Source: Hydrolagus affinis
Lineage: Eukaryota
Reading direction: 5' to 3'
NCBI GenBank assembly: GCA_012026655.1
Contig: JAAILG010001064.1
Coordinates: forward strand, 1-64,000
Length of the DNA stretch: 64,000 nucleotides
Part shown: one piece after another, positions 1,420-49,712 of the stretch
How positions within the stretch are numbered: position 1 is the stretch's first letter
Layout of the letters: each line of letters begins with the position of its first letter
The notes under the pieces: model-generated
Seen by the model: only the letters and a program-made list of their open reading frames with translations
The model's database searches: none
Told to the model about the DNA's origin: nothing
Translations under genes and position numbers: made by a program

Positions 1420-2170
1420 CCTTTGACGTCACCTGCCCCCAGCAGCCAATCGGAGCCTCGCGCTCCGCCTGTGACGTCACGGCAGCCTAAGAGGGCCGCT
1501 GTGGCTCTGAGAGCGACAGGGAGCGGGAGCGGCTACGACAGGGAGCGGAGGGGCAGTCCGGGGGGGACGGACAGGCAAACGGGCAGACTGACAGACAGGC
1601 GCCGCGTTTTGTCCTTGCTTTTTTTTGTAAAAAAAACATATGTTTTTCCCCAAAAAATATTTTCTATTAATTGGCTTTTACGGAGGTAAGGTTTGCGACC
1701 AAGTATGTATTGTATGTTGTTTGGGAGGCTGATGATTTTGTTTTTGGGTGGGTGGGTGGGTGGGGGGAGATTTGGTCGTGGGTTGTGTTGAAGAGCTGGG
1801 TCAGTAAGGAGATGGAAGATGGCTCTTCCTCTTGTGTGTAGCTCAGTTCTATCCCTCCGTCGTCTCCTTTTGTTTTCTCTCTCTCTCTGTCTGTCTGTCT
1901 GTGTCTCTTTCTCGACTGAATCCCTGGGCCTTTGATTTTGCACTGTCGCCTCAACCTAACCTGCTGGACGTGGTGTCAGCTGAGTGAGGGGGGAGGGGCT
2001 GGAGCTTCGCACAAATTGTTGACGGCGCTGCCGTCCAATCGGAGCGCAGCTGTCCGGTTGCTAGCTGGCGCTCGGCCAGTGGGATCGCGGAGGGAAGGCG
2101 GGACTTGTGTACCAGCGAGTTAGGTTGTGCGGGAGTAGGTAGGTGGTGGTGACGGAAGTTGCTGAATAAC
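1420..2170 (+). promoter_or_regulatory. ZFAND6: ZFAND6 CpG-island promoter region
   Basis: CpG/GC-rich block in an AT-rich window. Contains two full CRE palindromes TGACGTCA (1424-1431, 1472-1479), CCAAT boxes (1446, 2035) and ETS CGGAAGT (2153). Confidence 0.8.
1490..1685 (+). other. ZFAND6: ZFAND6 non-coding exon 1 (start approximate)
   Basis: Lies downstream of the CRE/CCAAT cluster and ends at strong donor GAG|GTAAGG (1686). The TSS is not determinable from sequence. Confidence 0.6.
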
Positions 2171-9777: not shown

Positions 9778-9928
9778 ATGGCTCAAGAAACCAATCAGAC
9801 TCAAGTGCCTATGTTATGTACCACTGGTTGTGGATTCTATGGTAACCCACGCACAAATGGCATGTGTTCTGTATGCTATAAGGACTTTCTTCAAAGGCAA
9901 AACAGTAACGGCAGGATCAGCCCTCCTG
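9778..9928 (+). CDS. ZFAND6: ZFAND6 coding exon 1 (A20 zinc finger)
   Basis: [50 protein letters not shown]; donor G|GTAAAT. Confidence 0.95.
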
Positions 9929-11549
9929 GTAAATACCTTTTTTGCTAAAGAGATCGTTTTTGCAGTAAGCTGTGCCCTCAATTCATTGTAATAGTAAACC
10001 CATAGCAGTTTTGTTGCTAAGTTATTTTAGTTTCATTGAATATTTAGGCTCTGGTGGGACTTTGAGGGAAATTTGTTTTTGTACATTCTAAAGACAAACT
10101 CCCTTATCACAGAGTCAGATGTGCTGTAAAGAAAAGCAGTTGTTGATTCACAGAGCATAATATTCCGTTGCACCAAAATGAAAATTTATTTTATTTCATT
10201 GGAAAACATCTTCCAGTCCGATTTTTATCAGATCATTGTGTATTTGGATGTCCACAAAGGAAACATTCAGAACAAAATTCTAAACCTTATAATGCGACTT
10301 AGTATTTTATGGATATAGTTTGAGTACAGATTAATTTATTTATGCTTTTGCACAGCATCTGCTAATTGCACCAGTTTAGCAGAAACCTATCCTGTTCAAT
10401 GTACAGAAGGGAATCCCCCAGAAGTACCATCATCATTCTCTTCATCGACATCTGAGCAGTCAAGGTAAGTGAGCAAAGCACCTCACTGGAGTTCTCTATT
10501 AAGACTGACTTAACTTTGTTTCTGATAAATTAATAGGAAAAAATTAAAGGAGTATCTCTTTCTCACCCACTTAGAATAAAGAAATATTATGTACAAAAGA
10601 TGCTTCGTAACTTTTGTCTTGCATGCATCGTATTGTATAATTTTAAGCATTCATCTGAATAGTCAAATGCTGAAATTGTGAAATCTGTAAATTATTTGTG
10701 CAATCACCTGTTTTTCTCTGTCTTTGATCTTTAAAACTATTAGTGGGAGGAAGTCTGAGATCAGATATATCAAGGATGAATTGAGAAAGCCAGAGCAGTA
10801 TTTTATCTGCTACCACCACCTTTATAGAAACATGAGAAGATTATAGTACACGGGAAGGCCACTTGGCATAATTATGTCTGTTGTGATTTAATATAAGACA
10901 GAGAAAAAGACCAACAGAACTACCTGAGCAGAAGTCCAGAACTCTTATTAGTAAAAACATAGTAGACTTGCAAATTACAGTTACAAGAACCTCAATAATT
11001 GACAATTATTTATGGAAAATGTAAACTTTAGTACAGAGCTCCGTGCAACAATAACAACGATAAAATTGCATTTCCAGAGCGCCTTTCTTGTCGGGAGGAC
11101 ATCCCAAGGCGCTGGACAACCAATTGTTTCGGACCAATGCTTATTGTCCATGTAAACTTTGTATTTATTGTAGATGTGGTTGATGCAGCATGCTCTTGCA
11201 TATATTGAACAATCAAACAGTTGTCTAGGTAGTTCTCTTGATTTTAACTCAGCTTCAATTACTATCTTATCAGAAGGTATGCAACCAAAGCCTGGGAGGC
11301 GACTTTAGAATGAGTGTACTCTAAGCACCTTTCGGAAGACACAACATGATAAATATTAATTTTAATATTCTATTGAACACAAATAAAATTACTGTAATCT
11401 CATCTCACTTGTGGTTCAGGAAATAACTGGGTAAATGCATGATAATAATGAACAAAGTATAAAACTGAATCAGATGTTTTGGTTTGTTACTTTGAAGAGA
11501 TGTGGAGAGTGACTGTAAAAGAAACTCTTGATTAATTATTGAAATATTC

Positions 11550-11580
<31 letters not shown>

Positions 11581-14500
11581 TAATAACTGTATATTCTTTG
11601 TACCACAACTCTCCTTACAAATATTAAGATAGATTATATTTGATTTACTGATTTAACTAGTAGCAATTTTAAAATTCCTAATGTCTTTGGCAGTATATAT
11701 CTTAATTATGTCCCCAAGCCTTGGCTCTTGCTAACCTGCACTTAATACATTCCAGAATTAGGTAAGTAGGATGCACATTCCATTCCAACAAACATCTTCC
11801 GAGTATTGGTGGGATGCATTGAACTCTGTTTGGTTTGGATACTCTTAAGCATGGTGATGGGTTTCCACATGTGTCAGATACCCAGTTGACTAAAAAATAA
11901 TAATTGGGCACACAGAGTAAATATTTCTGATGCAACACAAAATAAATTGTGGCCAAATTATTGCAGTTTTATCAGTATGTTTGGAATTCATGGAGTCAGC
12001 AACATTATTCTATCTTTGCAGCTGGATATACATTTATCCAGAGTGCTATTGATTCAGGGTTTACTTTGTGATTCAGGAATACAGGACAGTTTTATCTGCC
12101 CACCTGCCAGCCAACTGTTTGAGGCTCCACATCCAGCTTTGTCTCACCGCTCTTCATTTATAATAAATAATTAGCCTTGCTTGTGATATAGAGCCTTTTG
12201 GAGAATTGTTTCATCGACAATTATTAACAGCTGGTTTCACTCAAATTCTCTGCTGGCTTCATCAGAGAAACCATACACAAACCAGGCATTGGGCATTAAA
12301 GGAAATTTTCTCTGATGCACTGAATATTGCATTTTTAAACTACTTCTCTAATTACAGCAATATATTTCTGAGTAAGGTATTTGTGATGTATTTTGTTTGT
12401 GTTTTTCTTCATTTATTAAAGCAAGGGATAGATAAAGGAAACCAATGAAGAAGGAATATGTCAATTGTTATGTTTACTTAATCTTCAGTCCACAACCAAT
12501 ATTGGGAAGAGGGAAAAGGGGAAGAAAGCAAAAAGAGAAGAAGGGAAGAACTATTAAAAGAGAGGGAAGAAAGGGAAGGAAGAGGTAAGAGAAGGGGCCA
12601 AAGAATAAATTAATTAATAAAATGAGAAATAGGAAAAGCTTAGAAGAAAGTTAGAAAATGTGATCCAGGATGAAATTGGTATTAAAACTACATCGTATTA
12701 GAATGTTTGTAAATGTCCCAGTTATTGCCATTAAGATGTAAGAAAATGTAGCTGTTGTAAGAAGTCAACTCTCAGTAAAATATTTGTGAGCTTCTTACAC
12801 TATATTAGTAATCCTTACATGCAATATAGCACCTTTCACATTGCAAGGATGTCTCCATGTGCCTCACACAATCTACTATAAAGTGTAGTGACTGTGCTTT
12901 GTGGGCAAATATGGCAGCCAATTTGTTCGCAGCAATGTCCTACAAACAGGCATGAAGCGAATGACTAATTTGGATTGATAGTCAGGACATTGGGAGAAAC
13001 TCCCTTCTTTTTTCGAATGGTGCCATAGGATATTTAACGTCCAACTAAAGTGACAGATGGGGCCTCAGTATAACCTTCAGCAATGCAGCACACTCCCAAC
13101 ACTGCATTGAAGTGTCATCTTAGACTATGAGTCCCAACTCACAATCTCCATTGACTGAACTCTTCCTCCCCCCACTAAAGTTTTGAAGAACAATTGTTCC
13201 AATATTTTTTATAGGTTCTAAATTTGTAATATTTGTGCAGTCCAGATTAATTTCCTTGTAAATGTATTGAATTGAAGTATTTACATTTGGATAATAGGAA
13301 GTCATTTGAATAATAGGCATATATTTGAAGCAAAGTATAGCATCTTTGTACATAGTAGTCAAGGCACAGGTAGGAAATGTATAGGTTATTATAAAATCTT
13401 TCACTACTTAAGCTAATTATTGATCCACTAAAGAAATCTAAAATTGTTAGTATCCGTTCTCGTTGACTAGTTTATTTAATTCTGGATTCATAAATGACGT
13501 TTCTTTGTAATATCCCAATGGTACATAAAGCTTTTTTTATTGTAAGCCCTATCATGATGCAGGATGGTTATTGTACTGTGTAAAATGGGATTTTCCCCCT
13601 GCCCCCACACACCCCCAATACTTTTCAACATTAAAAGTAGTAGTGTTTGCTTTGGAATAACAGGATTCTCCCCACCACACCCCCCACCACTCCCACCCTG
13701 TTCACTGAACAGTAATTCGTCAATTCCTCTAGCACATCTGAATACTTCTGACAACTAAAATTTAGCTACAATAAATTTTCTGACTCAGCTAATCATAGTC
13801 TATACTGCCCCAGTTTTGCAGGATAATTTGCTTGCCACAAAGTATAACAGCTTTGTGTATAACAGTAGACATGATATTGTACCATAATATTACTACTGCA
13901 TTATTACTAAAAGAGCAGAAGCTCTGGATACAAATGATCCCTTTGAAGAATACAAAGCAAATCATATTAATAACCCGGTGATGATCAAGTTCAGTCATTT
14001 CTGAGGAGAACAATGTCGAATGGCGCTTATTTTTTGTTATGCCACAAAACCCTGCAGTAATGGTATTGATGGCATCATGTTTCTCCTTACATTTTTAATT
14101 GTTAAATGAGTGTGTGTAAATTACATTTGAAAACTATGTATTTTAATTTTATCACGTAACTCTGCTTTAGGTCTGTGCCCAACCAGTTGCTGCTATTATC
14201 CCAAGAATCTGTAGCAAATACCCAGAGTGATGGGGAACATCCAGAAGAAAACCAAGCAATACCTAAAAAGGACTTGCAGGGTAATTCTGTATGGAATGCT
14301 ATTTAAAGACTATTTAGAATACATCACACTATAAGTTAGGTTCAATTTAAACACACATAACAAAGGGAATCAAGTTAATCATAAATAATTTGCATTCTAT
14401 TTTGTTGAACTTTATAGATGGGGAGTTTTTATTTTACAATTGCATGCAATCATGCAGTTCAAGGGTGAGTTAATTAATTATAAATAAAATTCTACAAATT

Positions 14501-17500
14501 TCAGGGTAATTTATTTAAAACGTTTTCTACTATACTTTAGTTTGTATCTTTGCTAGAAATATTTTAGCTTGGCATTTGCTTACATATCAAAGCATTACTT
14601 TGTTGGTTAAACTTTTCAGTCAGAGTTGTATGCTTATTTACACTAATTCAACTTCAAGGTGGCTGAAAATTCAACTTGTTTGATTTTATGGCAGATTTGG
14701 GTGGGAACCAGCAGGTAGAGAGAGCAACGTTGAACAGTTGTGAAAAATCATTGGTAGGGAGTAATTGTGAAGACTGTTCCATGGATAGTTCAGATTATTC
14801 CAACTCTTCAAAGAACACAGACACAGGGTACAGTTATGATGCTAGTACAGAGAGCGAGGCAGATGACTGCATGACGCTGGAGGAGGTATCGCGGAGGGCC
14901 AAAAGGAAAATAGAGGAGTGTCCAGATCTAGGTAAACTTTACTTATAGGGATATGCGGTATATAAAATATTTCCTGTGATATTTGTTTCTTGCCCCTTCA
15001 CCTCCTTCCCTATAGAAAAGCTGTATATCAGTAGCATGTACAGAATGTTTGCTAATGTTTAAAATAAAGAAGTTGACAATTTTGTGTTTGTTACAGCTTC
15101 CACAACAGAAGAAATAGCACAGACGTCTTCTGATGGACAAGAAAAGTCTCCTGAAAAACCTAAGCAGAAGAAGAATCGTTGTTTTACGTGCAGAAAGAAA
15201 GTGGGGCTTACAGGTGAGTATAATAAGGAATCTTTGTAGAGTTTAGTGCCTTTCCAGTCAGGAGGTCATCCCAAGCATTTCACAGGGTTCACTGAAGTGT
15301 ATTTGCAGATGCAGGCAGCAACCCAATTGTGCACAGCAATGTCAAACAATCAGTGATGAAATGAATACCAATTTTATTTGGGGAATTGTTACCCAGGATA
15401 CTGGGAAAAAACTCTAGTTTTTAAATCATGGCATGGGATCTTTAATGTCCACATGAATAGGCAGATTGTACGTTGGTTTAATGTCTGATCTGAAGGACAG
15501 GTAAAGGTTAGAATAAAAATCTATTCTAGTGTTGGACCTGCACAGACATGTTTTGTGAATTTCTGTCAGCATAAGTCATCTTAAAATATGGTGGTTATTT
15601 CTTCCAGTTGATTTTGTGCTCCAAAACAAGGCATTTGTATAATGCAGCTTTAAGTAAATCCTGACCTCATCAAGTGAGCACTTTCGCATTTGACTTCAAC
15701 TTACATCAGCTTCCAGATCCTAAACCTATTGTTTATTGATATTTAGTTTTTATCAATCACAGAAGGTGAAGGGATAAATGTATTCCACTGGGATTCCAAC
15801 CCAGAACTTTCAATTGCTTAACTGAATGAGATACTAGGATGTCCTGCTGTATATAAAATATACTAGAAAAGGCTTCTCCACTGAGAATATTAAAGCTCTC
15901 TGCCCAGATGTACATCAATGATGAATCATTGACTTTGATACCGAGAAATCGCCTTACAAGACTCAACCCAATGAAATTTGTCATCTAATAAATTTGCCAC
16001 GGATTAAACACAAAAAACGCGTAACTGGCATACTTATTGAGTATTGAGGATTGAAAATACAAAAGGCACCGGAAAGAAATCGTGAAATATATATGAATCT
16101 ATTCAAAGGATCTTTGACGGTCAACCTCATAGGATTTTTGCGAAGGTGACATTGCAAATTGAAGATTGGACATTCTTTCATGTACTGGATCTGGTTTTCT
16201 ATAAAAAAAAGCCTTTGACAAAGATTCGCTTAAGAGGTTCCTGTATGTTAGTGGGTATTGAGGGAGGGAGGCTGTGGATGTTTAAATGGCTACCTGGAAT
16301 AAAATAGAGTTGTTAAAGGGGAGCTAGGTTGAATTGGGGAATGAGAGAGGAGAATCAGGCTTAGCACATAAATGAAAAGGATTCACAGACTCAATACAAA
16401 GTACTGTGGTTACATTTGACAATCTTGATAGGTTGGGGAGGCTTGTGAAATTGAAGGGGCAGCTAAAATTTAACAGATTTTTGACAAAAGTATCAGTACT
16501 GACCCCTGCCACGCTAGTCGACTCAGGGCTCTTATGTACAGAATTGGTTGTGTCGAAGGAGTGAAAGCATCATGCCATTTGGCTCAGCAACCTTATCTTG
16601 TGTTAGCTTTTCACTGGATAGAAAAAGCAAATCTAGAACAATATTTTAAGAGCTATTAATGTGAGAGGATAAGAATGGGACAGGTTCAGGATTGCGGAAG
16701 GCCTGGTTACAATGGATACTAGCAAGTATTTCTTTGCACTGTTTGATTAGTTATCATGATGGGTAGTCGGGGTCAGGATACTGGATTAATTTAAGAAGCT
16801 GACGCTGCCAGAGGAATACAGTGGGGTTGGTATCCCAGAAAGATGAGGTGAAATGGACCAAAATGCTTTATTCACCTGAACCTCCTGTGATTTTATGAGT
16901 AATGTCATCCAAATCCATTTGAGTCTTGCAAATTTTGAAATGCTCTCAGTAATTTCTTTGCATTTCTTACAAAGTAGAGTTTTTTTTTGTGATTCCAGAT
17001 AATCCACAATTTACTAAAGTGTTTGTCATATTTGAAACAGGGCAGTTTCCAGAACTTTGAGCCGTAATCTTATGGAGAAACATTTGCATTGTATGATTGT
17101 ACTACATTTGCCCCTTGGTGGCAGTATTAATCTGTATTACTGATGGCCTGTCTTTTTCAGTATATGATTTTTTTCCCTTTGAATTCTAACTTGTAAAGAA
17201 TCTACCGCATCTCCATTGCAGACAAAGATATAAAAACAGTTGCTGTCATATTTTTCACCAAATACTTTATTTTTCTTAATTTCTGTCTTTCCCTGCATGC
17301 ACCGTTCCCAGGGTTGTATGGACGAATTTGGTGGGAGTTTCAGCCAGCTGTCTGACACATGGAAACCCATCACCATGCTTAAGAGAGTATCCAAACCATG
17401 CTGAAATTTCCATGTGTCCCACCTACATAGATTCTTGGAGTGGAATGTGCACTATCTTCCTGGAGGGATGCATCCTGCTTACATAGAATCATAGAATCTT

Positions 17501-20500: not shown

Positions 20501-20811
20501 AACAGCTTGGAGAGCCCTAGGGGAAGACAAACATTGAAAGCAAGGTTTACAATTACAGTACGGTATTTACATTTGAAATAAATAACTTCAGATGTAATTG
20601 CCCTTATTTGTATTGTAGTCGAATTGCGGATGTATATCTAATTGCACTCCTCTTGTTTTCAGGATTTGATTGCAGATGTGGAAACTTGTTCTGTGGATTA
20701 CATCGTTACTCTGATAAACACAGTTGTCCTTACGATTACAAAGCTGATGCTGCTGAAAGAATAAGGAAAGAAAATCCTGTTGTAGTTGGAGAAAAGATCC
20801 AGAAGATTTGA
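9778..20811 (+). CDS. ZFAND6: AN1-type zinc finger protein 6 (A20 + AN1 zinc fingers), spliced CDS, 211 aa
   Basis: join(9778-9928,10356-10464,14171-14280,15097-15213,20663-20811) = 636 nt, all GT-AG and phase-consistent. Has the A20 finger [22 protein letters not shown], the AN1 finger [34 protein letters not shown] and C-terminus [13 protein letters not shown]. Adjacency to FAH supports ZFAND6 over ZFAND5. Confidence 0.93.
10356..10464 (+). CDS. ZFAND6: ZFAND6 coding exon 2
   Basis: [25 protein letters not shown]...; CACAG acceptor, AG|GTAAGT donor, phase 1-2. Confidence 0.9.
12808..13145 (-). mobile_element. Older DeuSINE-type element
   Basis: Has an L2-like tail, Deu core ATGGCAGCCAATTTGTTCGCAGCAATGTCCTACAAACAG and GATATTTAACGTCCA...CAATGCAGCACACTCCC. 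A related copy lies at ~15226-15500. Confidence 0.65.
14171..14280 (+). CDS. ZFAND6: ZFAND6 coding exon 3
   Basis: [18 protein letters not shown]...KDLQ; TTTAG acceptor, G|GTAATT donor, phase 2-1. Confidence 0.88.
14695..14931 (+). CDS. ZFAND6: Candidate alternative (cassette) ZFAND6 exon, 79 aa acidic/Ser-rich insert
   Basis: 237 nt, stop-free, GGCAG acceptor, TAG|GTAAAC donor, phase 1-1 matching the flanking exons. Composition is exon-like within an AT-rich intron. Confidence 0.6.
15097..15213 (+). CDS. ZFAND6: ZFAND6 coding exon 4 (start of AN1 finger)
   Basis: [39 protein letters not shown]; TTACAG acceptor, G|GTGAGT donor. Confidence 0.95.
15226..15500 (-). mobile_element. Older DeuSINE-type element
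   Basis: CCAATTGTGCACAGCAATGTCAAACAATCAG...GGCATGGGATCTTTAATGTCCAC, similar to 12808-13145. Confidence 0.6.
17482..17592 (-). mobile_element. CR1-type LINE 3' tail
   Basis: CATAGAATCATAGAATC..CACAAAAGGAGGCCATTCGGC; near-identical to 38560-38690. Confidence 0.75.
20663..20811 (+). CDS. ZFAND6: ZFAND6 last coding exon
   Basis: [49 protein letters not shown]; TTTTCAG acceptor. Confidence 0.96.
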
Positions 20812-29700: not shown

Positions 29701-32700
29701 AATTTAATTGTTAAAACAACTGATAATAATAGGGATCAGATCAGAGTTCAAATTTATGCTCCAATGATTGGCACACCCATTATAAGGATATAAAAATAAT
29801 AATCCTTACAATTGGTAACTCTCCTTTCACATCAAAATGTTTCACAAAACATACCGGAAAGTGCAATGTCTGTGTAATTTGCAGACAGCACACACTACAA
29901 AAAATGCTGCATTGGTAACAAACTTGATTCTTTTAAAAGAAAACTTTTACTCTTTTTACGTCTAAATAATGCTGTTAAAATTATTACTTAGTACTGCCAA
30001 TGTTATTCACTTAGTTTCAGGAAATCTCCAAGGTAATGTACACTGTTGGTTAGTACAGTATGTTGTTCTGTATACTAAATTCATGACACTTGAGGCAGCA
30101 GAGTGTGTGTTAATCCAATTGTTTTCTACATCTCTTCCTACTCTAGGCTTTCTTCATAGGTTCTGGCACCAAGTTAGGAGAGCCCATTGCAGTGTCTAGA
30201 GCCCATGAACATATCTTTGGCATGGTGCTCATGAATGACTGGAGTGGTAAGAAATTGTGTGTCAAAAGAAAATTTATGTAACACTAGTCCTACTTGTTAC
30301 TTGATAGTCAGCCAACAAAACATTCAGCGGCATATTGTGTTCCTCATTGTTGCATTATATATTTTAAGGGAATTCTGTACTCTGTCTTCAAACTGGGTTG
30401 AGGAGTTCTTTGAAAAATATATCTTAGTATTGTATATATTCTATACTGTATATATAATATGCTATACCAGTGGAAGTCCCCTCCAAAAAGCACATTAATT
30501 TGTCGAAAACTGTTACTCCACCATTTTTTTGTTACGAGATTATTATCTTAGGTGCATGCCTGACCTCAGGAAACCTGGCCACTCTCAAGCTTTGCAGGGA
30601 GAGGAAGGGGGGGTAATGTACACTGGGTGAAAAGCAACTTTAAAACTCGATTTACATCGATCAAAGCTGCAGATACAGGAACCCCGAGAACAGATCTATT
30701 TTACAGGAATGTGCAAATTGCCAGAATTGTGTATCAAAATATAAATATGAATGGATACCAGAGTATTTTGGTTGCTGGATTACGAGATTCTTCTGGTCTT
30801 TTGCAGCACGAGATATTCAGAAATGGGAGTATGTTCCTTTGGGACCCTTTCTTGGGAAGAGCTTTGGGACCACAATCTCACCGTGGGTTGTACCAATGGA
30901 AGCTCTAATGCCATTTGTGGTGCCCAACACTGTGCAGGTAAATTGGAAGGTGGCAGGCTGCGTAAACATTGTTACAAACACGTGGTATATAACAACTACA
31001 ACAATTTGCATTTATATAGATAGCGCCCTTCACGCCAAGTAGCATCCTGGAGCGCTTTACAGTGCTTATAAAGCAGAAGTAGCTTATTGCATTTGCAGAA
31101 TCATGCGCTAACATTTGGATAACATTTGAATAAGAAGATTGACAGTTTCTTTCATTGCCGTACTATGAGCAGAAAGTTATTTTTACCAGAGCCAATGGAG
31201 TACCCCAATCACTGGCCTGCACAGGACTTCTCCATGGAGCACGAAAGATCTGAGAGAGAGAAGGAAGTTGCGATTTGTCACTTTCAAACAACTCCCATTG
31301 TACAGTTGTTTCTCTTTTGCAACAGTAATAATAAGCCCTTGTTTATAGTACTTTGTAAAGTACAGTAAAATGCTAAATTCTGGAAAATATACTTGGCAAA
31401 ACCTACAAATAAACATCTTAATAATAATAATAATCCTTGCATTTGATACAGCACCTTATCATGTTATTGAGACATCCATTGCAAAGTGTTTCACAGATTA
31501 TACTGCAAAGTTGGTTGACTATTTTGTGGGTGGAAAAAATCCAGTACATTGCTCGTCTATTAACTGAGATAGAGGTTTCCATGGTAGATGATATAAATGT
31601 AATAGGATTATTTATTGATTAATTTTATTATTATTGCTGTTTCACAAGTGTTCATTGCTTACAGAAGGATTACATGCTTTCCATAATTTATCTTTTATTT
31701 TGCAGGATCCAAAACCTCTGCCGTATTTGTGCCACAATGACCCTTACATCTTTGACATCAACCTTTGTGTGTCCATCAAAGGTACGTCGTAAATTCTACT
31801 CGACATCATTCACACTGAATCTGTGTTATATTTTTAATGGATAAACCTTTATAAACCTGTGCATTCAAACTGCTTTCATTGCAAAACTGAGGTGAAGGGG
31901 CAAGGTCCACAAGTGCCTTGAATGTGACACGTGGTAGGAGAAAGGAAAATATAAATTAATAAGGAATGAATTAGGAAAAGCGATGAATAGTCTGTTCTAT
32001 AACAGCAGCAACAAAATTACATTTGTATAGCACCTTTCACATCAGGAGGATGTCCCAAGGCGCTGGACAGTTACGCTTCAGACCTGAGCTGAGGATGGTG
32101 GTGGGGGGGGGGGGGGGGGGGGGGATAAGGAGTTGCCGATGGGTCCATCACCAGAATTTGAGTTTAAACTACTGTAATGTATAGAAAGCGGGGAAGGAAG
32201 TCCACTCTTGAATTAGTGGGAAAAACAATCAAGTAGGAAAGTAGGATATGTGTTCAAGTACGAGATGTGTGGGACTTAGGGTTTGGATGTAGGAGGGAGA
32301 AAGCAGTATATTTTGACCTGGGGAGGAATATTTATAATTTAATGTATTAATCGTAACACAAATAAAAAGTGACGATCCATTCTGCCGAACGACCTGCATT
32401 CTAATCTCTAATCTAATTCAATTAAAGCTAATTAAACCTCATCTAATCTTGTGAAATCAGAGACGAGAAGTTTCACATTGTTGTTTCACACCGGATCCTG
32501 CAGTTTACGTTACAATGGAAAGGAAAGAACTTTCATTGTCATTCAAAGCTTAACATTTACACTCGATTGGAAATGTGCAGCTCTTGCATTTTGAATCTCA
32601 TTACATTTAGCAGTTAGCAAAATAAAAGTTTTAATTTCTAGCCTATGATTACTAACTATTTATAGTAAGAAATATATTGGATGAAAATGTGTTCTCTCTT

Positions 32701-48334: not shown

Positions 48335-49712
48335 ACATGGACCATCTCTGACACTTCCCTTCCTTGACTTCACCATCTCTACATCAGGCAACTGCCTGTC
48401 CACAGACATCTTTTACAAATCCACTAACTCCCACAGCTACCTTCACTACACTTCATCCCACCCGGCCTCTTGCAAAGATGCCATCCCTTTTCCCAGTTCC
48501 TCCGCCTCCGCCGCATCTGCTCTGACGATGCAACATTTCATACCAGAGTGACTGAGATGTCTACATTTTTCCTCTACTGAGGATTCCCACCAACCATGGT
48601 AGCAAAGGCCCTTGATTATGTCCGTCCGATTTCCCGCATCTCCACCCTCACCCCTTTCCCCCCATCGAGGAATCGTGATGGGGTCCCCTTGGTCCTCACT
48701 TACCACCCTACCAGCCTCACTATTCAACACATCATCCGCAGAAACTTCCGTCATCTGCAACGTGACCCATCCACCAAGGATATATTTCCCTCCCCTCTCC
48801 GTATTCCGAAGGGACCGTTCCCTCCGGGATTCTTTGTCTCCATTGTCAGCACCACCAGCTGCTCTCCTTCCTCTGGCACCTTCCCGTGTCAGCGCAGGAG
48901 ATGTAACACCTGCCCTTTCACCTCCACCCAAACCACTCTCCAGGGACCAAAACACAGCTTCCATGTGAGACAGCGGTTCACGTGTACTACCACCCATGTA
49001 GTATACTGCATCCGCTGCTCACGGTGTGGTCTCCTCTACATTGGGGAGACTAAGCGCAGATTGGGAGACCGATTTGCAGAGCATCTTCGCTCTGTACGGA
49101 AGGTCAACTTTGATCTTCCAGTCTCTCTCCATTTCAACTTGCGCTCACATTCAGAGACTGATCTTTCGCTTTCGATCCATGGTCTCCTGTGCTGTTCCAG
49201 TGACCTACAGCGAAAGCTTGAGGAACAGCACCTCATTTATCTACTGGGGACACGACAGCCGTCTGGCCTCAATATTGATTTCAGCCATTTCAGGAGTTTT
49301 CACCCCCAACCCCCACCTTCCCCCATCACAATCATAACTCCAGACAGCCCCTGCCTCCCTCGTGTTTTGTTTATTCTATCACCACTAAACACCTCTTCTC
49401 CCCAGTTTCGTTGAAACCCACCCACTTCTGTTTCTCCCCCTGAAGCCATTAATACATATTCAACTCATCAGTTAACACGCTCTTTTTTCCTTTCCCTTTG
49501 TCTTCTTTGTCTCCTTTGTCTTCCATGTCCTGCCTCTCCCCCTTTAACGTCCTTAAGAAACCTCTCCCTTCAAACAAGCCCCAGTTCTGACGAAGGGTTG
49601 TAGACCCGAAACGTTGACTCTTTTTCCTTTCTCCATGGATGCTGCTTAACCTGCTGAGTTTCCCCAGCAACTTTTGTTTCAGATTCCCAGCATCTGTAGT
49701 ATTTTGTGTTTA
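48335..49712 (+). mobile_element. Penelope-like retroelement, 5'-truncated (RT C-terminus, GIY-YIG endonuclease, terminal repeat)
   Basis: The RT thumb reads LPFLD...TDIFYKSTNSHSYLHYTSSHP..CKDAIPF. The endonuclease region has the PC...RCNTC linker, VVYCIRCSRCGLLYIGETKRRLGDRFAEH, LPVSLHFN and EQHLIYLLGTRQPSGLN. Frameshifts and stops make it inactive. Confidence 0.93.
49583..49619 (+). ncRNA. Minimal type I hammerhead ribozyme motif in the Penelope terminal repeat
   Basis: AGTT-CTGACGA-A-GGGTT(GTA)GACCC-GAA-ACGT-T-GACT: stem I, CUGANGA core, stem II, GAAA and a palindromic ACGU stem III. Confidence 0.75.

Follow-up and report, generated by a model that had tools for sequence, protein, structure and literature searches.

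The 237-nt block at positions 14695-14931 of the window (the whole 64,000-nt stretch of Hydrolagus affinis DNA that was analyzed), here called exon A, is a real, conserved, and alternatively used coding exon of ZFAND6 that is common to chimaeras, sharks, and rays. We consider it fairly probable that exon A is a conserved, frame-preserving cassette that is likely included in a minority of transcripts and likely adds a partner-binding module to a lengthened linker between the A20 and AN1 zinc fingers. The starting points of this explanation, namely the exon itself, its frame, its conservation, its skipping in a close relative, and its inclusion in a skate-like product, were observed, and its functional part we infer. 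Exon A is already known from automatic annotations of several sharks and rays, while its chimaera copy, the conserved predicted helix that it encodes, and its pairing with a second, basic cassette (exon B) are new.

The host gene is ZFAND6, as the original prediction had it, and judged by sequence it is nearer ZFAND6 than ZFAND5. Its constitutive coding exons are as follows.

9778..9928, + strand: first coding exon, A20 zinc finger (comparison with the shark ortholog)
10356..10464, + strand: linker exon (spliced to the following constitutive exon in RNA run X1, with a loose end)
14171..14280, + strand: linker exon 5' of exon A (sequence and RNA joints)
15097..15213, + strand: exon 3' of exon A, end of the linker and start of the AN1 finger (sequence and RNA joints)
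20663..20811, + strand: last coding exon, AN1 finger and C-terminal tail (sequence and RNA joints)

The assignment follows from the 96 to 98% identity of the window exons to shark ZFAND6 over both fingers, the 100% identity of the linker exons to Callorhinchus ZFAND6 records, a FAH-family exon 3' of the gene (30644-31039, + strand; Pfam PF01557, E of 4e-5, just under the Pfam cut-off), and the location on other contigs of two more A20/AN1 genes resembling ZFAND5/6 (C32364, 2279-7073, and C16141). ZFAND6 and FAH are adjacent genes, and ZFAND6 (AWP1) matches the host in domain order, in its near-identical fingers, and in the FAH-family neighbor downstream. The shark ortholog (P0003) gave Pfam matches to both PF01754 (A20) and PF01428 (AN1), and the Atlas clusters nearest to the host protein were ZFAND5/ZFAND6, 208 to 209 aa long. 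Elsewhere in the window, a likely promoter and non-coding first exon of ZFAND6 were seen at 1424-1690 (+ strand), with two TGACGTCA palindromes (1424 and 1472), a CCAAT at 1446, and a donor site between 1685 and 1686, and an open frame of 277 aa containing a GIY-YIG-like motif lies at 48581-49414 (+ strand), which is probably a retroelement fragment.

Rereading of the sequence confirmed the 237-nt block exactly as originally described, with its 79 codons, its 1-1 phase, and its peptide. The elements of the exon and its surroundings are listed below.

14641..14694, + strand: branch-like CACTAAT (candidate branch point) and exon A acceptor (sequence)
14688..14690, + strand: in-frame ATG 7 nt 5' of exon A, in a weak Kozak context (candidate start; sequence)
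14695..14931, + strand: cassette exon A, 79 codons, phase 1-1, pI 4.2 (sequence and alignment)
14932..15096, + strand: downstream intron, 165 nt, its weak donor matching the consensus at 4 of 7 positions; read-through adds a brief tail ending in the stop at 14946 (14932-14948)

Exon A has AG/GT borders (ggcag directly 5' of it and TAG/gtaaac across its 3' end) and a reading frame free of stops, and splicing of 14171-14280 to exon A and 15097-15213 gives a stop-free 290-aa protein, compared with 211 aa for the form lacking the exon. The longer linker claimed for the 290-aa isoform was reproduced by computation (195 rather than 116 residues). The exon is purine rich, as had been noted (0.64 versus 0.47 to 0.48 in the flanking introns), and also richer in GC (0.46 versus 0.28 to 0.32), and its peptide carries 18 D/E against 8 K/R. 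Stop-free windows of 78 codons are rare in the other introns of ZFAND6 (41 of 8,350; 0.5%). A loose AG..GT scan of these introns returned three other frame-preserving pseudo-exons, so that the anatomy of exon A alone is only suggestive; its reality is settled by its conservation across cartilaginous fishes. The CACTAAT at 14641 and the TGCATG at 14441 lie where they had been placed, but the reading of the latter as an RBFOX-type element gained no support, as TGCATG is no more frequent in the window than expected by chance (38 occurrences versus 53.7 expected from shuffles). Another TGCATG, within the exon at 14868, encodes Cys-Met, and the elasmobranch versions are without that Met. An origin of exon A from a repeat or transposon was not supported: a protein-level search of the animal's own genome matched the peptide at a single place, with no further copies, and neither exon A nor exon B matched the paralog loci searched (the whole of C32364 and C16141:7000-16900). 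The 79-aa segment hit no Pfam family at an E of 1 or less, and the insert gave no usable Atlas match.

A search with the exon A peptide returned 10 clusters among 62 candidates, all of them ZFAND6 isoforms of sharks or rays (E of 1e-25 to 1e-31), including predicted NCBI/UniRef entries such as XP_067827732.1 and XP_069767395.1. The window peptide is identical to the shark, ray, and skate-like versions at 58 to 61 of 78 residues (74 to 78%), which is level with the two constitutive linker exons compared with elasmobranchs (63 to 83% and 64 to 75%), and in the alignment the insertion junctions are identical across species. Exon lengths of 79, 80, and 76 residues (implying 237, 240, and 228 nt) differ by whole codons only, the window version being one residue shorter than the shark and ray versions near its end, and 57 of 80 columns are invariant among six elasmobranch versions. 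The presence of a chimaera copy suggests that the ancestor shared by all cartilaginous fishes already had the exon.

We then surveyed the ZFAND6 records by opening 20 of the 32 clusters of a search with the whole linker, which yielded 89 proteins from 23 named species plus four unnamed records; the database isoform records are predictions. Exon A was present in the records of 6 of the 23 species and absent from those of the other 17, including all four Callorhinchus records retrieved. Both Scyliorhinus species have forms with exon A and forms without it. Full-length products containing the exon were found in five of the six species, while Heterodontus had only forms without the AN1 finger (3 of 3 exon A records). 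A 323-aa skate-like protein (P0015), encoded by a 1,374-nt contig of a sequencing run, has both exons A and B spliced in and is identical to a Leucoraja record at 243 of 243 residues outside exon A. Since the coding exons of ZFAND6 are spread over about 11 kb of the window, this contig most likely represents spliced RNA. No Leucoraja record retrieved contained exon A, so that a gap in the annotation does not by itself imply that the exon is missing; the retrieved Callorhinchus records may miss a conserved exon.

To follow splicing in a close relative of the window's source, we mapped 4 of 17 listed runs, none of which was registered as RNA; the four mapped ones consist of contigs without tissue labels, and their exon joints identified them as spliced RNA. 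The skipping half of the proposed cassette behavior was borne out, the joint 14280^15097 being present in all four runs, whereas the inclusion half was not seen in this animal: no inclusion junction occurred in any of the four, in contigs from which rare forms drop out. This lack of an inclusion junction in a chimaera-like source, together with the 17 of 23 species lacking an exon A record, was weighed against our main explanation. Exon A was covered at low depth in three of the four runs, by contigs spanning 14558-15125 (run X1, continuing through the downstream intron), 14620-14931 (run X3, ending exactly at the exon A donor), and 14700-14853. Contig depth, which is a poor measure and gives a hint only, was 14, 12, 6, and 0 over exon A compared with 203, 90, 147, and 13 over the skipping joint. 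Skipping in every run and inclusion in none indicate that exon A is probably a minor or restricted form, and it is likely included in a minority of transcripts.

The X1 contig bears on a different account, in which exon A acts mainly through retention of the 165-nt intron: the stop at 14946 would lead to nonsense-mediated decay or to an A20-only protein that has lost the AN1 degron, lowering or altering ZFAND6 output. The weak donor (4/7) and the read-through in X1 agree with it, as do the Heterodontus records and the skate-like P0014 (91 aa), which end in read-through tails beginning with Gly-Lys, and the position of the read-through stop, which precedes the last junction by 267 nt. The rapid turnover of ZFAND5/6 is moreover described as needing AN1 (bioRxiv 10.64898/2026.06.05.730379). 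Against retention stand the length of the exon, a multiple of three across lineages with the frame kept open, the full-length in-frame products of five named species and P0015, and the fact that low-depth intronic coverage may reflect unspliced precursor. We regard this account as unlikely.

The left ends of the same contigs are relevant to an alternative first exon, with a transcript start inside the intron and the ATG at 14688 opening a 169-aa protein devoid of the A20 finger. AN1 plus the tail is described as a functional unit by itself (bioRxiv 10.64898/2026.06.05.730379), which would suit such a product. The ATG is in frame, P0014 has its starting Met at the same place, and the X1 and X3 contigs have their left ends at 14558 and 14620, no contig being mapped farther upstream in that intron; contigs, however, are unable to show transcript starts, the Kozak context is weak, another ATG lies upstream at 14630, and no record of about 170 aa appeared among the 20 clusters listed. 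Alternative exons often show conservation around their splice sites in any case, which we also counted against a first exon here. On balance this is a very unlikely reading.

Divergence from the same close relative indicates constraint on the cassette. Exon A differs at 10 of 237 nt and the flanking intron at 29 of 302 (Fisher P of 0.019); the 10 changes are five silent and five replacement ones, giving a dN/dS of about 0.26 (P of 0.04). Two of the five replacements fall in the Ser/Asp/Tyr-rich core described below. The two flanking exons show three differences, all silent, and exon A is thus constrained, though less than its neighbors. Could the exon be a conserved non-coding or decaying element with an incidental open frame? 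Its faster change relative to the flanking exons and the lack of an inclusion junction (0/4 runs) would fit, but the restriction of indels to whole codons, the 74 to 78% protein identity across the group, the excess of silent changes, and the spliced skate-like product make this the least probable of the readings, and a highly improbable one.

Two parts of the exon A peptide stand out.

14790..14861, + strand: Ser/Asp/Tyr-rich core, peptide residues 33-56, predicted disordered (pLDDT of 30 to 39)
14877..14918, + strand: peptide residues 62-75, a predicted amphipathic helix in which the basic patch lies (AlphaFold2)

The core is invariant at 24 of 24 columns among the six elasmobranch versions and at 23 of 25 with the window included, and the helix stretch is invariant at 14 of 14 among the six. 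In the AlphaFold2 model, built from a 22-sequence alignment and poor overall (mean pLDDT of 39, pTM of 0.17), the insert is mostly disordered, and its sole confident part is the helix at its end (starting at residue 217 in the shark protein, pLDDT of 63 to 82 over the block). The hydrophobic moment of the helix is 0.74 (P of about 0.006 versus shuffles, for a stretch picked after inspection of the model); an excess of salt bridges was not supported (P of about 0.11). The CK2-like acidic sites proposed earlier were recovered, two [ST]xx[DE] sites being kept in all seven exon A versions scanned (P0015 left out). The NLS-like basic patch fared worse: it matched none of five monopartite or bipartite importin-alpha patterns and was rejected as a classical NLS; the patch sits in the predicted amphipathic helix. 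A metal-binding fold was rejected because the number of Cys residues varies from two to five, and patterns for a strict DSGxxS degron, SIM, SUMO, and TRAF6 had no match in the exon.

The shark proteins revealed a second cassette that was absent from the original prediction.

12489..12584, + strand: cassette exon B, 96 nt, phase 2-2

Exon B has 15 K/R among 31 residues and matches four of the five NLS patterns. Of the 23 cartilaginous-fish species, 21 have it in their records, including Callorhinchus, with 27 to 31 of 31 residues identical, and it is more conserved than exon A. The Heptranchias records contain all four combinations of the two exons. Joined from the window's exons, these combinations give 211 (none), 243 (B), 290 (A), and 322 aa (A and B); the corresponding linkers have 116, 148, 195, and 227 residues and net charges of -5, +8, -15, and -2. 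From these data exon B appears to be spliced independently of exon A and to be the better candidate for nuclear targeting. One could then suppose that the two exons form a localization switch, in which the acidic stretch of exon A masks the exon B signal, or its own patch mediates import, and splicing moves ZFAND6 between cytoplasm and nucleus. The swings in linker charge and the NLS matches of exon B favor such a switch, and so, by analogy, may the paralog ZFAND3, which requires an NLS and functions in the nucleus (PMC7732990). The failure of the exon A patch to match any of the five patterns and the occurrence of all four combinations in Heptranchias, which means that the exons are not obligately coupled, speak against it, and we find it quite improbable. 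A broader version, a splice-coded four-state switch on a proteasome-linked ubiquitin shuttle in which the basic exon would direct the protein to the nucleus and the acidic exon with its helix would mask that signal or recruit a partner, kept since the chimaera-shark split and absent from bony vertebrates, is similarly doubtful in our estimation.

We instead favor the addition of a docking module to a longer tether. The A20 finger of ZFAND5/6 binds ubiquitin chains (PMC11731517). AN1 together with the tail docks on the proteasome, activates it, and also serves as a degron (bioRxiv 10.64898/2026.06.05.730379), and the flexible region has been proposed to let A20 hand over cargo (PMC11799193). 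On that footing, ubiquitinated cargo would be held by A20, with AN1 and the tail docked on the proteasome or Pex6 at the other end of the tether. Because inclusion of exon A leaves both fingers intact, it most likely changes the reach of the protein and adds a docking module. The 79 additional linker residues would alter reach, charge (from -5 to -15), and docking partners, and the module would consist of the acidic, phosphorylatable stretch and the predicted amphipathic helix; with both cassettes included, the linker would be nearly neutral.

Exon A resembles other cassette exons in disordered linkers in being frame preserving, with a weak donor, predicted disorder, and short conserved motifs, and differs from them in being long (237 nt). 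Tissue-specifically spliced genes are reported to be enriched for disordered regions in a study of tissue-specific exons that includes elephant shark (bioRxiv 10.64898/2026.09.05.749416), the main text of which does not mention zfand. A literature search for ZFAND6 with sharks or chondrichthyans found no paper on exon A. The layout of ZFAND3, with its A20-linker-AN1 order and NLS-dependent nuclear role (PMC7732990), is similar, but ZFAND3 is a separate paralog, and in ZFAND6 the NLS-like part is the optional exon B. The predicted shark and ray isoforms have the same exon at the same junctions, to which the window adds the chimaera copy.

Outside cartilaginous fishes, a profile search for distant homologs gave back the 10 elasmobranch clusters found before, out of 7,993 scored, and a search of 1.84 billion representatives with exon A had one match, the shark protein itself. 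A control search with the whole linker gave 32 matches among 790 candidates, all from cartilaginous fishes, and missed ordinary bony-vertebrate linkers too; the searches are thus insensitive, and the absence of exon A from bony vertebrates is not established by them. To our knowledge, human ZFAND6 lacks the exon A segment, with which the 208-aa length of the Atlas ZFAND6 cluster agrees. The suggestion that mammals lost or never gained the exon is consistent with these searches, the gap seems to span all bony vertebrates, and loss or absence there is likely. At this low search sensitivity, cartilaginous fishes differ from other vertebrates in having two optional linker exons in ZFAND6.

The finding is limited to a single gene and a single class of vertebrates. 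In PMC11799193 the ZFAND5/6 linker is regarded simply as a flexible tether; two optional exons that are 74 to 100% identical across cartilaginous fishes suggest that it can carry a regulated function. The exon A and B isoforms are natural variants with which the roles of tether length, charge, and location in proteasomal cargo hand-over can be tested. Further variants were seen in shark records P0002, P0013, P0010, and P0017, namely, a linker exon shorter by 17 residues and a 7-residue addition after exon B.
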